The position numbers and the translations under genes are program-made. From assembly GCA_964016885.1 (NCBI GenBank), contig OZ024743.1:241614001-241678000 (forward strand): a stretch of 64,000 nt of DNA. Direction: 5' to 3'. Below the pieces are notes generated by a model that was not told where the DNA came from, ran no database searches, and was given only the letters and a program-made list of their open reading frames with translations. This document shows positions 5,946 to 49,935 of this stretch, in pieces (within the stretch, counting starts at the first letter, position 1; each line of letters starts with the position of its first letter). This stretch comes from Eledone cirrhosa (Eukaryota).

Positions 5946-6700
5946 GAGTAATCTCACCGCTAAAACTGCCGTAAATACAGCCATATATTGTCAAAGACAC
6001 CGATGGACAGAAATGCCTGAGCGGAAAAGAGACAAGTGGTCAGTGGTGGACAGAGAGACAATCCATGAGGTGGGTGACCGGCAGACGAAATATAGAAAAG
6101 ATTGAAAGAAGAGGAGGACAAGCACAAGTGTATTGGCGCATAGCAGCGACAGGAAAAGGCGAAATTAAAAAAGGCGCTGTACAAGACAAGTACACACAAA
6201 CACCTTCACCCTCGTATGCCTTCAAACCACCAGAATGGTTTCGCAGGTTTTGATTGAGAGTAGAATATTAAAATGCTGTATTGGGAAAATATAAATATTT
6301 CTATTGTTGTGATGTGTGTGTGATAAAACAAACAACAGAGATAGAAGGGAATGTGCGGTAAAAAAAAAAGAAAGAAAATAATGTGATAGTGAACCTCAAA
6401 CTGTGGTATCTGTCCTAAACAGAAAGCTAAACATATCTATTTATTACTTTCTTCCAGCCACTTCTATGAGCCACAAATTTTTCCTTGTCCTCCTGCTCTT
6501 TCAATATTTTCTATACTTCATCTGCCTGTCGTTCATCTCATGGACCGTCTCTCTGTCGACAACTGGTCATTGGCCTCTATCCTCTGAGACATTCTTGTCC
6601 ATCGCTGTCTTTGGGAGCATTTAGTTGTTTTAACGGCGATGAGTTTTTACATTTATATACGTATTGAAATACACACATGCTTTGTCACGACAACAATGGT
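5946..6700. mobile_element. Old two-armed inverted-repeat insertion between (TA)n tracts, probably PLE pseudo-LTRs
   Basis: Diverged inverted arms ~5951-6123 and ~6484-6643; left arm abuts (TA)n, right arm has ~55 nt extension before (TA)n. Confidence 0.55.
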
Positions 6701-7195
6701 TTTTATATATATATATGGATATAATACTGGATTTTACCATCAGTCCAGGGTCCGGGAAAGTATCAACACATATATTTTTATTGTTTGACCCGAATTACTT
6801 GGTCGTTTGTTTTGGTTGTGCGGATGATATGTTTAACCATCTTCTCAGTGTGTTTGGCCCTTAACGTATGTTGTAGCTCTGATTCACTGAATCATCGAGC
6901 GCTTGCCACACATATCGGATGTTGATTTTCGTTAATTCCTGTGCTGAAATACGATTCTCGCTTATATATATATATATATATATATATATATATATATATA
7001 TAAATAAAGCCGAAACATCTATGATCTGCAGTTAACAGCTGATGAAAGGTTTCTTCTCTTGTTTCGATCATATTACCATCTTAAACATTCTTTACACAGC
7101 CTGCTTCGTTTCTTGTAATGTTACATATATATATTTATATATATATATATATATATATATATATATATATATATATATATATATATATATATATA

Positions 7196-7579
7196 GTTAG
7201 AGAAGCAAAAAATTGCTTATTGTGATCCAGTTCTTGGTTAAGAGAGCCAGTTTCATGGATGGTTTCAACGTACGGTTAGGGGTAACTCCACAAGTTTGTA
7301 AGAATCCCGTTCAATCTTGGAGTATAAAGTATAAAAGAGAAAACACAGGTGAGCATTAAGAGAAGGATTTTATCCAGGTATTTACGACCGTTTCATTGGT
7401 AAGTGCAACCTTATATTCACAGTCCAAATTTTGAAAATTTGGACTGTGAACAACAATTATAATTGAGAGGCTGCTATTTGCAGTATAGCAATATAAGGTT
7501 GCACTTAACAATGAAACGGTCGTAAATACCTGGATAAAATCCTTCTCTTAATGCTCACCTGTGTTTTCTCTTTTATACT
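7196..7579 (-). mobile_element. Two-armed PLE pseudo-LTR insertion in (TA)n with hammerhead 3' half
   Basis: Near-perfect inverted arms 7328-7417 and 7490-7579 containing GAAAC-GGTC-GTA; inner hairpin 7416-7450; (TA)n on both sides. Confidence 0.7.
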
Positions 7580-7680
7580 ATATATATATATATATATATA
7601 TATCTATATATATATATATATATATATATATATATATATATATATATATATATATATATATATATATATATATATATATA

Positions 7681-7783
7681 TAACAAAGGAAATGTGGTAA
7701 GGAACCAGATGGACCATAACCAGAGTCCAGAAATAGCCGCCGAAACGGCTTGAGCTCTGCCGTCGGGGTCATACTTTTTCCTA
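7681..7783. mobile_element. Short two-part insertion of the 'TTCCTA' PLE-like family
   Basis: 7681-7720 is the reverse complement of the family 3' end (cf. 43581-43620); 7721-7783 matches 43481-43540; flanked by (TA)n. Confidence 0.7.
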
Positions 7784-8116
7784 TATATATATATATATAT
7801 ATATATATATATATATATATATATATATATGTGTGTATATATATATAGGGAAAGTAGGGTTTGAAAAATGCAATGGCATACACACATGCCTACACACGTA
7901 TGTATGGGTGCGTGGTTAAGAAATCCGGCTCCCAATTATGGGACCCATGGTTCCTTGCTAATATTTAGTATCAAGCAACGTGGGACTACCCATTAGCTAT
8001 GTGGAAGCCCATAGGGTTGACAGCACGTGTAATACAGTTGATCAGTCTCTTCCCGCTATGTGGCCCTTACTTTGCTTGACGATTATCTTAAACGTATAAG
8101 TTTTATGTATGTATGT

Positions 8117-9131
8117 CTTCTAGAAAATGCTCTGACAAAGGCTAGGGCTCTTTCATTCCCAGAGGTTTAACTGCGCGATCGGGTATCCAGCCCAATTATT
8201 TCTATATACATGTATATACATATATACACATATATACACATACATACATGTATATAAATATTTACATATTTTTGGATGGCCGTTGACTCTTATGAGTTCC
8301 TCCGCCTTTGTCACGTTGTGTTTTTTGTCCTGCAGGGTGTCCAAAATCACCCTCCTCACCAAGTAAACTTGGTGTGGTTGCCGATTTACTCGCCGACGAC
8401 CCGACCATGTGACAGGTTGTACTGGGTTACATGTTACCAGTAGCACTCAGTAGTTACCGATGATGTTGATCTTTTCTTCCTTTCGGGTTATAGTTACTGT
8501 CGTTCAGAGAGTGGGATTGGCTCAGTGCACAGTCTTTCCTCACTTTAAAAAAATGTTCACGCATAGGCATTGCATGGTGGCATTAATTAATCATTATTAA
8601 TATTATTATATCGTGCAATGACCATACTCCATAACGAGGGGGAAGCCATCATGTATGTATGTATTTATGTAACGGCCATCCAAAAGTGTGTAAATATGTA
8701 TATACGCATGTACATATGTATATATATGTATGTGTAGATACATGGGTGCATGTGTATGTATATGCGCGGGGACATATAAATAGTTGTGCTGGACACCCGA
8801 TCGCGTGGTTAAACCACTGGGAGTGAAGCTTTTTTCAGGGCATTCTTCGAGGAGAAGGCAACTCAGGAAGCTGGGATAACTCCGATATAGAACCTGCGGC
8901 TCCGTATTTACCGATGATGTTGATCTTTTCTTCTTTTCGGGTTATAGCTACTGTCGCTCAGAGAGTGGGATTGGCTCAGTGCACAGTCTTTCCTCACTTT
9001 AAAAAATATCTTCACGCACAGGCATTGCACGATAGAACTAATTAATAATTATTAATAATGGTATATCGTGCAATGGCCATACTCGATAACGAGGGGGCAG
9101 CCACCATGTATGTATATACGTATTTATGTAA
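8117..9131 (+). mobile_element. Two RTE-related non-autonomous retroelement copies with (ATGT)n tails plus an inverted duplication
   Basis: Direct repeat 8454-8672 / 8908-9131 ending ACGAGGGGG(C/A)AGCCA(C/T)CATGTATGTA; similar to 15491-15790; inverted repeat 8152-8284 / 8671-8827. Confidence 0.55.
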
Positions 9132-9145
9132 GTATGCACAAGTTA

Positions 9146-48002: not shown

Positions 48003-48150
48003 CAGTTCAAATCTCACTGTGGTTAGCATTGACTTTCATCTTTACGCGGTCGATAAACTAATATACCAGTAACGTACTGGGGTCGATTCAATCGACTTTG
48101 CCCTTTCTGTCATATTGCTGACCCTGTGCCAATAGTAGAAATAATTATTT
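48003..48150 (+). mobile_element. SINE family 1 (older, 5'-truncated)
   Basis: AGTTCAAATC, GACTTTCATCTTTACGCGGTCGATAAA core, CCCTGTGCCAATAGTAGAAATAATTATT tail. Confidence 0.8.
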
Positions 48151-48159
48151 TTAGTTATT

Positions 48160-48500
48160 TTTCTCAGAAGATTGATTTTCTATGACAGCAATATTGTGTG
48201 GTACCCCAACCGCTTTAAGTCCTTTCGAAGTTTCTGAGAGTGACACGGGTCATCACAGGTATCACTTCAATTTACCATCTTTCATTACGAATCATCTTGC
48301 CATCTACACTTTGAATATGGAAAACTTGGTGATTTCTAAACCTCTTTACTCACAATATTCGTGCCATTTAGTATGGCTACGTCAATGATCTGACAATATT
48401 TGGCTTCCCTCTTCAATACAATATCCGGTCACTGATTCTCAATTACTCTATCAGTTTGGAATCATAATCCCAGAATACCATTATCTGCTCAACCTCCTAT
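48160..48500 (-). pseudogene. Decayed Dong/R4-type restriction-like endonuclease fragment
   Basis: Minus-strand peptides VFWDY, QTDRVIENQ*PDIVL...CQIIDVAI...IVSKE parallel the 62391-62780 ORF. Confidence 0.7.
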
Positions 48501-48668
48501 CTCCTTCCATTACTTTACAATCCAACATCAACATCTCTCTCACTCTCTCTCACTCTCCCCTTCTCTCTCTCTCTCTCTCTCTCTCTCTCTCTCTCTCTCT
48601 CTCTCTATATATATATATATATATATATATATATATATATATATATATATATATATATATATATATAT

Positions 48669-49207
48669 ATAAAATATTAAAAAAATAATGAATAAAACAA
48701 TGAAACAGTTCCTTATATTAAACAAAAAAAGTTCATTATTTAACGATCGTTTCTAGGACATATATGTGTTAGAATTGGCATGCATATTCAAAAGATCTAT
48801 GTACAAAATTATACAAACTATCAAAGAGAATATACATACCAACACATATATATGCTGTCTTCAGAAATAATTATTTCTGAAGACAGCATATATATGTGTT
48901 GGTATGTATATTCTCTTTGATAGTTTGTATAATTTTGTACATAGATCTTTTGAATATGCATGCCAATTCTAACACATATATGTCCTAGAAACGATCGTTA
49001 AATAATGAACTTTTTTTGTTTAATATAAGGAACTGTTTCATTGTTTTATTCATTATTTTTTAAATATTTTATCTTGTCTCTGTATTCCGTTTATCTTTCA
49101 CCGAAAGTGATTTTTGAATGCATCTCTTCTTTCCATGATATCCGGATTACATTGAGTTCTTCATACGGATTGGACACTACCGTAAACTTTTGGTAGATTT
49201 ATCTACA
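48669..49207 (+). mobile_element. Two-armed PLE insertion forming a spacerless 404 bp palindrome plus ~135 nt extension, in (TA)n
   Basis: 48669-48870 mirrors 48871-49072 (one mismatch seen, near 49062); each arm holds a hammerhead motif. Confidence 0.85.
48871..49005 (+). ncRNA. Hammerhead ribozyme with ~104 nt helix II domain (mirror copy at 48736-48870 on minus)
   Basis: TTATTT-CTGAAGA-[long imperfect hairpin]-GAAAC-GATC-GTT-AAATAA; 6-bp helix I, palindromic loop III; first helix II pair is a C-A mismatch. Confidence 0.75.
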
Positions 49208-49258
49208 TATATATATATATATATATATATATATATATATATATATATATATATATAT

Positions 49259-49935
49259 AAGTTGTAATAAAATTAAAAAGAAATTTCATTTCTCACTCTT
49301 AGTACGGCACTTACTTAAATGTAAGTATGTATGTATACGTACATACATATATGTATACAGACGTACAGTAGCATGCATATATATATATATATATATATAT
49401 ATATATATATATATATATATACATACAGGTACACATACATATATGTACGCATCAGTTTAGCGGACACTTATTATAGCGTCCGCTTTGTTCGTTTGTAAAC
49501 AAACTGAACAGCCTGAATTTATGCCGCACGGTGTTAAGGCAACCACGTCACCTTTTTGTTCAAACTGACACAATTTTCATAAGGAAAGTATATACTTTCG
49601 AACGTTCAACTATCTGGCAGATGGGTATACGGTGCTGATGATAGCTAACAAGCTTGAAACTAGTACATCGTTCCTGTGTCAGTGTTGAACAAAAAGGTGA
49701 CGTGGTTGCCTTAACACTGTGCGGCATAAATTCAGGGTGTTCAGTTTGTTTACAAACGAACAAAGCGGGCGCTATAATAAGCGTCCGCTAAACTGATGCG
49801 TACATATATGTATGTGTACCTGTATGTATATATGTATATATATATATATATATATATATATATATATATATATATATGCATGCTACTGTACGTCTGTATA
49901 CATATATGTATGTACGTATACATACATACTTACAT
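49259..49935 (+). mobile_element. Two-armed PLE-type insertion with ~255 bp arms that include microsatellite DNA
   Basis: Arms 49319-49572 / 49675-49935; hammerhead in the spacer; 60 nt extension on the left only; (TA)n flanks. Confidence 0.8.
49630..49670 (+). ncRNA. Minimal type I hammerhead ribozyme
   Basis: CGGTG-CTGATGA-T-AGCT(AACA)AGCT-T-GAAA-CTAG-TA-CATCG; helix I CGGTG/CATCG; palindromic CTAG loop. Confidence 0.85.

Follow-up and report, generated by a model that had tools for sequence, protein, structure and literature searches.

Near-obligate pairing of one short and one long 3′ end in head-to-head insertions of predicted Penelope-like elements of Eledone cirrhosa

Inverted pseudo-long terminal repeats (pseudo-LTRs) with an optional tail of 30-40 bp at one end have been described for the Penelope and Poseidon groups of Penelope-like elements (PLEs) (PMC3846280, PMC2377424, PMC8557442). 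Published accounts ascribe the inversions and the tail to self-priming by an antisense transcript (PMC3846280) or to resolution by a nuclease (PMC8557442), and the origin of inverted pseudo-LTRs and one-sided tails is a question posed in both PMC8557442 and PMC11167929. According to the latter, the protein of a lizard PLE (Anolis Poseidon, PAc) cleaves and extends both DNA strands in vitro; two internal start sites of reverse transcription flank the tail, the protein is predicted to form a dimer, and hammerhead cleavage is dispensable. Here we describe insertions in a 64,000-nt stretch of Eledone cirrhosa DNA (the window; contig OZ024743.1, positions 241,614,001 to 241,678,000), most of them PLE families as judged by motif, in which two inverted arms are joined head-to-head with their 3′ ends facing outward. 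One arm has a short 3′ end (S) and the other a long one (L); the stretch between S and L is called the tail.

The likeness to PAc would cover the features just listed, namely two internal starts around a tail, both strands being extended, a putative dimer and hammerhead cleavage that is not needed. The PAc starts, however, have no homology to the target and are not strand-specific (PMC11167929), whereas the ends described here overlap a TA target and are paired asymmetrically in each insertion. For Penelope and Poseidon the tail is described qualitatively as optional (PMC3846280, PMC2377424, PMC8557442); here S/L pairing is near-obligate, and the data oppose antisense self-priming. The inverted pseudo-LTR architecture, the one-ended tail and the two internal starts are already known, and a sequence-only reading of the window, made by a model from the letters alone, was correct in calling inverted arms and tails established. 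New within the open-access literature are the near-obligate S/L rule in two PLE types, tails of 58-136 nt and a tracer that favours one sense RNA. In that literature we found neither a count of end pairs nor a twin-priming model for PLEs; the PLE reviews of 2005-2006 may state it.

Pairing of short and long ends

The sequence-only reading had listed 11 loci at which the arms meet head-to-head and differ in their ends, one being short and the other long, and self-BLAST with simple repeats masked, together with reading of the sequence, bore this out at 11 of 11. Its list requires amendment in that the locus given as 33617 starts near 33593 and that insertions of like pattern at 7683-7781, 19998-21873 and 57892-59255, the last of them beyond the range it covered, are absent from it. 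Its statement that insertion is mostly into (TA)n holds for most ends in the window, which adjoin TA arrays, but not for the L ends at 18560 and 46612. The two-armed insertions and their parts are as follows.

5946..6704: family J, left arm S (minus strand), right arm L (plus strand); old, without assigned open reading frame (ORF) or hammerhead
7196..7578: family A, Hydra-type PLE, left arm L with a 133-nt tail, right arm S; palindromic junction near 7433
7431..7528, plus strand: predicted hammerhead-like motif of family A, with a U3-A8 core variant, long helix II and self-complementary helix III
7683..7781: family C-type, left arm reduced to the final ~40 nt of tail sequence, right arm S
18575..19430: family H, Hydra-type, left arm L, right arm S with a decayed GIY-YIG remnant; degenerate hammerheads in both arms
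19998..21873: family M, putative PLE, left arm S, right arm ~45 nt longer
33593..33930: family G, Hydra-type, left arm S, right arm L with an internal deletion; each arm has the beginning of a hammerhead core (33700 minus, 33769 plus)
36967..37072, minus strand: inverted L arm of family B, 48 nt shared plus a 58-nt tail
37365..39740, plus strand: family B ORF, 791 amino acids from stop to stop
39741..40135, plus strand: family B 3′ untranslated region (UTR) / pseudo-LTR, stopping at S within a TA array
39943..39986, plus strand: predicted type I hammerhead of family B, three helices complete
40378..40727: family D, left arm L with an 84-nt tail, right arm S; non-canonical hammerhead core
41715..41829: family C-type, left arm very short and S, right arm L
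43419..43618: family C, Hydra-type, left arm S, right arm L with an 80-nt tail; both arms begin within hammerhead helix II
44317..46597: family G-related element, decayed minus-strand ORF at 45586-46620 (Hydra-type linker), 3′ end lost; inverted S arm at 46538-46597
46616..46800 (right edge approximate): family I, left arm S, right arm L split by a repeat resembling a short interspersed element (SINE)
48672..49206: family E, Hydra-type, left arm S, right arm L with a 136-nt tail; hammerhead core at 48877, very long helix II
49260..49935: family F, left arm L with a ~60-nt tail, right arm S; hammerhead at 49629-49670, in the right arm alone
57892..59255: family K, left arm S, right arm ~75 nt longer

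The whole two-armed family B locus spans 36967-40135. The family J arms are 75% alike, their best relatives lying at 71-78%, while the family E locus contains a 398-nt near-perfect palindrome (48672-49069, 99.5%). Family M has 398-nt arms at 97%, nested small inverted repeats and a 37-nt tandem interior; neither an ORF nor a hammerhead was found at 19998-21873, and for this family the S/L rule is drawn from the window locus and three incidental genomic loci.

Pairing was counted in the same 3.0-Gb genome (G000, where the window is G000:C4:241614001-241678000) by searching for exact internal core motifs upstream of both ends in six families. These gave 1,759 matches for A, 24,390 for B, 11,387 for C, 1,027 for D, 1,377 for E and 1,568 for G, and the reversed control motifs of the six families gave 0 in the same genome. 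The counted sample comprises 231 merged loci on contig C1, all among the first 100 listed matches per family; the first 30 per family were unselected, and later ones were mostly chosen for two motif matches or to fill in a locus, their ends having no part in the choice. Of 143 pairs, 142 are S/L, one is L/L and none is S/S (p = 1e-41 against 0.5), where 'long' takes in arms that pass S and whose far end went unrecognised. With no match for the reversed controls and a pairing this far from 0.5, chance is excluded. All 19 family C pairs are S/L. As to orientation, the first 100 listed family A matches, read by eye, contain 22 minus-then-plus pairs within 13 kb and 0 plus-then-minus.

Several observations weigh against a strict rule. 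Of the 385 ends, 99 (26%) are unpaired, and most single arms that were re-read for a partner showed none; one-armed insertion or later loss of a partner is common. Outside the count, L/L pairs occur at 2 of 28 distinct loci from a first family A search, which favours the query's own shape and was excluded from the count for that reason, and at one family D locus (L108). Family N, seen incidentally, offers one L/L (L123) and one S/S (L079) locus. Two other candidates for L/L, L040 and L193, proved to be 5′ pseudo-LTRs that continue into the ORF. The S/L rule is near-obligate, not absolute. Its occurrence across two PLE types yields a sharp prediction for the published in vitro system: one start per strand, and never the same start twice.

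Two internal ends and independent arms

The tail measures ~133 nt in family A, ~58 in B, ~80 in C, ~84 in D, ~136 in E and ~96 in G. Full-length or tandem copies of A, B, C, D and E continue past L into the ORF, although no such copy was found for family G. Given that read-through copies exist, S and L are both internal positions of the RNA; the sequence-only reading had claimed this for the short arm only. Beyond nearly all ends, the first 2-6 bases of the template agree with the TA repeat, and in each of the six families the S ends share TA/AT bases with the target. The predicted hammerhead cleavage site lies 16 to about 150 nt upstream of S and coincides with neither end; in the family A motif at 7431..7528 the predicted cut falls after 7524, 54 nt upstream of S.

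The two arms of a locus have independent 5′ ends. Among 16 family A pairs with exactly one arm reaching beyond the 438-nt reference, the S arm is the longer in eight and the L arm in the other eight; in five further pairs both arms are long. Thus either end can back onto a PLE ORF genome-wide, as had been claimed, while in the window itself both intact ORF arms (18560 and 36966) end at S. Some L arms consist of the tail only (families A, B, C and E). When 21 family A loci were re-read in search of a tiny partner arm, four showed an L arm made of just its last 9-16 nt beside the TA array (two found by script, two by eye).

Truncated arms stop at preferred points, 150-159 nt upstream of S in 21 of 59 family A arms and 40-62 nt upstream of S in 33 of 34 family C arms; the pile-ups in D and G are partly due to short references and were not used. 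At the pile-up point there is an initiator-like motif with a TATA-like box upstream. A comparable pair is noted in PMC3846280. We infer from these motifs that the pile-up point may be the 5′ end of the RNA.

Probable asymmetric twin priming and its alternatives

Judging from the arms and their ends, these insertions probably arise by asymmetric twin priming, in which one cDNA would start from S and the other from L, usually on one sense RNA. A dimeric reverse transcriptase (RT)/endonuclease would nick both strands of a TA repeat, and the nicked strands would serve as primers, one 3′ end annealing at S and the other at L. The two active sites would be non-equivalent, one using S and the other L, on a single pseudo-LTR or on the 5′ and 3′ pseudo-LTRs of one transcript. 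Strand displacement would let a segment be copied twice; both 3′ ends would be extended, many mini-insertions ending at the RNA start, an initiator-like site, and the two cDNA 3′ ends would be united by end joining. In LINE-1 twin priming, too, both target strands prime cDNA and an inverted, truncated insertion results, but there it accounts for a minority of insertions, the second start varies and the overlap between the arms is slight. Here twin priming would be the chief route, the two starts do not vary, and one segment is usually repeated in both arms. That both TA strands prime reverse transcription, as the sequence-only reading had proposed, is well supported by inference from the target overlaps, the independent 5′ ends, the tiny arms and the lizard in vitro data (PMC11167929).

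Whether one RNA or two is copied can be approached through variants shared by partner arms. In 126 of 137 pairs the partner arms are closer to each other than to arms from elsewhere, and the own partner has a mean rank of 0.10-0.30 against 0.5 expected, which disfavours two independent RNAs. A two-cluster split of family G set apart one outlier, not subfamilies, and is uninformative. The most telling case is a family B locus (G000:C1:2083700-2090100; L383, L321), where the inverted L arm has 33 rare changes in common with the main arm's upstream pseudo-LTR. Of these, 25 are A-to-G and none is T-to-C. A genome search found the edited motif in these two arms alone, and the downstream pseudo-LTR, which bears S, is unedited. 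The pattern looks like ADAR-type editing of the element RNA before reverse transcription, and the direction of the shared edits, A-to-G in sense orientation with no T-to-C, points to a sense template. All this is most simply explained by a single edited sense RNA that was primed at S of its 3′ pseudo-LTR and at L of its 5′ pseudo-LTR, with one segment copied twice; the earlier suggestion of two pseudo-LTRs thus fits one RNA at this locus. RNA editing marks can in this way trace which molecule templated each arm.

A number of points count against asymmetric twin priming from one RNA. The one-RNA argument is drawn from one locus, where an edited source copy since lost or unassembled, or later gene conversion, would look alike and could account for the shared changes. 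Subfamily concordance may also reflect subfamilies active at different times, and the arms of one family G pair are 23% apart. The L end of family E has no clear TA overlap in the single read-through copy seen. The RNA start sites are presumed from initiator-like consensus motifs. The study of the lizard system saw top and bottom strand alike in start site, reports no pairing, and found the starts not to be homologous to the cut DNA (PMC11167929). As for the predicted dimer, folding two copies of residues 1-480 of the family C protein, with no alignment supplied, scored 0.00 and speaks neither way.

The hammerheads bear on the first alternative. A descriptor scored complete type I folds in five of 12 fragments (B, C, F, G and the one at 44160). 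In A and E the core and helices were recognised by eye, with mismatches next to the core and a long helix II; both A and C carry the U3-A8 core variant, which is reported in PMC4209133. The family A motif at 7431..7528 was read from the sequence, since its fragment was too short for the descriptor to give a score, and its helix II folds with a z of only -0.85. Family D has an extra core base and is non-canonical. No core was seen in families J (checked over ~290 aligned nt) and I, and the arms at 41713, 43416 and 46612 are without a complete core; Rfam gave 0 matches at the gathering score, and the 150 E-value rows listed, of 188 for 33400-50200, contain no hammerhead family. The hammerhead label given to the loci does not suit every one of them, 5946 being an exception. 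In line with published hammerheads, self-complementarity of helix III or its loop is seen in A, C, D, E, F, G and H, at a position upstream of S.

This self-complementarity, which places a palindrome between the 5′ boundary and S and so in every template, is what recommends a bridge by hammerhead dimer or kissing loop, which would tether two RNAs or pseudo-LTRs, with one target strand priming each. Family C keeps its palindromic loop despite a stable 6-bp helix III, five family A loci pair a 5′-boundary arm with an ORF-reaching arm, so that two pseudo-LTR copies are often used, and minimal PLE hammerheads cleave weakly as dimers according to PMC4209133. The symmetry of such a bridge, however, predicts S/S and L/L pairs as well, which make up 0 and 1 of the 143. 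Moreover, the A-to-G changes at the edited locus destroy the hammerhead core in the copied segment; most family C arms begin within helix II and still pair S/L without exception; helix III of family B is an imperfect palindrome; family J shows S/L arms without any core seen; Naiad PLEs, which have no canonical hammerheads, share tail and inversions as described in PMC8557442; and neither end lies at the cleavage site. We regard this bridge, which the sequence-only reading had put forward, as unlikely and as unsupported by the present data. From sequence, the hammerhead is probably carried along and does not set the pairing.

In a second alternative, one primed cDNA folds back on itself, or an antisense transcript primes itself (PMC3846280), and the second arm ends at the TA overlap. 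It would explain the shared variants and the edited locus, as well as the near-perfect palindromes whose arms have a common start (48672-49069, 99.5%; L034, L187 and L199). The second arm would nevertheless have to lie within the first cDNA, yet in eight of the 16 informative family A pairs the arm with the tail is the shorter and the longer arm ends at S. Tail-only and 9-16 nt L arms cannot be fold-back copies because they have nothing in common with their partner, and the A-to-G changes without T-to-C point to a sense template. Arms not contained in their partner refute fold-back as a general rule; we consider it improbable overall, and it may persist as a minority route.

About equally doubtful is a single priming site followed by trimming, in which the endonuclease later cuts one arm at S during resolution (PMC8557442). 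Trimming would give one tail per insertion without needing two start sites, and cleavage by the Drosophila endonuclease requires the tail (cited in PMC11167929). Both sites were nevertheless mapped in vitro as starts of reverse transcription (PMC11167929), the TA/AT overlap of S with the target holds in every one of the six families, and a second primed arm would still be required.

That the inversions are artefacts of assembly or library is scarcely credible. One palindrome is 99.5% perfect, the loci sit among simple repeats, and none of the reads or contig pieces listed covers a whole locus, but arms at old loci differ by up to 25%, the arms are unequal in length with fixed ends peculiar to each family, the 43478 junction is crossed by contig pieces from run X1 (possibly the sample behind the assembly), raw reads of another study show the family C S end entering TA (2,291 and 1,981 reads), and like architecture is in print for other animals.

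Asymmetric twin priming might further be the normal route of endonuclease-bearing PLEs, with non-equivalent dimer sites that each use one edge of the tail on opposite strands and copy a single RNA twice; we put this forward tentatively, at slightly less than even chances. If true, this one rule would account for the tail as well as for the inverted pseudo-LTR and the palindromes at the junctions, and it would set PLEs apart from LINE and LTR integration.

Identity of the elements and neighbouring repeats

By motifs judged by eye, most of the listed loci are PLE families of the Hydra or Neptune type. The 791-residue product of the family B ORF combines an RT, a CX4CxxC linker and, at the C terminus, a GIY-YIG domain with CCHH. 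This agrees with the Neptune definition (CX2-5CxxC linker plus CCHH), a motif that cannot tell Neptune from Nematis. Family B resembles Neptune-type PLEs in linker, CCHH and microsatellite target, an assignment made by motifs only; it has a 58-nt tail and obeys the S/L rule common to the Hydra-type families. Longer genomic copies of families A (7196), C (43416) and E (48669) have ORFs with DKT, RWK/RWR, CxCX5C, CxxC and, at the C terminus, GIY-YIG, the RWR variant being that of the C and E proteins; their translations show what defines the Hydra clade (DKT, RWK, CxCX5C and a C-terminal endonuclease without CCHH). Families G (33617), H (18560) and probably D (40378) match a profile built on the family C protein and its homologues. 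No ORF could be tied to families J, I, F, M and K (5946, 46612, 49259, 19998 and 57892), and Pfam and PDB sequence searches gave no match for the PLE proteins.

Other hallmarks of endonuclease-bearing PLEs are present as well. One ORF with RT and GIY-YIG endonuclease is found in the A, B, C and E translations, with 822 homologues, pseudo-LTRs occur in partial tandem and inverted order (L242, L245, L383, L390 and L394), and the tail stands at one end. A TA run follows 44 of 48 family A L ends (counted by eye), in keeping with the (TA)n insertion of the Hydra clade. Families A, C and E share with that clade, as described in PMC8557442, like motifs, TA-repeat targets and hammerhead-like motifs, and G, H and probably D fit the profile. 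The Hydra-type tails here measure 80-136 nt against the 30-40 bp stated for PLEs, several of the hammerheads differ by a U3-A8 core or by the great length of helix II, and family E units are about 4.9 kb against <3 kb (PMC8557442).

Two other identities were rejected. A non-LTR retrozyme does not fit, the short copies being head-to-head pairs and not head-to-tail tandem units with a hammerhead each; nor does a miniature inverted-repeat or terminal-inverted-repeat DNA transposon, as the ends are asymmetric, the junction differs at almost every locus and the interior is a PLE ORF. The families reach thousands to tens of thousands of motif copies and resemble hairpin DNA transposons, so they are likely misannotated.

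Hydra-type ORFs also occur on 77 metagenome contigs, 48 of which have repeats, mostly direct; a pair count was possible in none. On one (L408, 711-904), the only such contig among the 77, an inverted S arm ending in a TA run precedes the ORF. In G000, a tandem array at L348+L349 (G000:C1:162168300-162182100) comprises six or more pseudo-LTR motifs of family E at intervals of 2.2-2.9 kb, with an inverted arm as cap. Many loci, such as L273, L275, L290 and L336, have different PLE families stacked in one TA array, where each insertion splits the array and leaves new targets. At two family A loci (L242 and L245) the sequence around the L site is rich in pyrimidines, and after it comes a possible splice acceptor, immediately before the ORF start; the 5′ UTR may contain an intron, as that of Drosophila Penelope does.

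The window contains further repeats. Single arms of the G-related family N, with complete predicted hammerheads, lie at 44065-44233 (minus) and 31694-31790 (plus), and solo L arms of families I and C, with no partner visible, at 42301-42392 (minus) and 42580-42680 (plus). A 78-nt inverted repeat (90%) at 10089-10834 flanks CA and TA arrays. Two stretches, 190-5634 (plus) and 22135-28029 (minus), are decayed LINEs that have AP endonuclease, RT and zf-RVT domains and a TATC-type repeat at the end, with further LINE fragments at 30920-32300. An abundant tRNA-SINE-like repeat is present at 55940-56399, 14378-14723, 43654-43846, 46801-46936 and 59961-60151; the first of these consists of two copies placed head-to-head with an 85-nt spacer between them.

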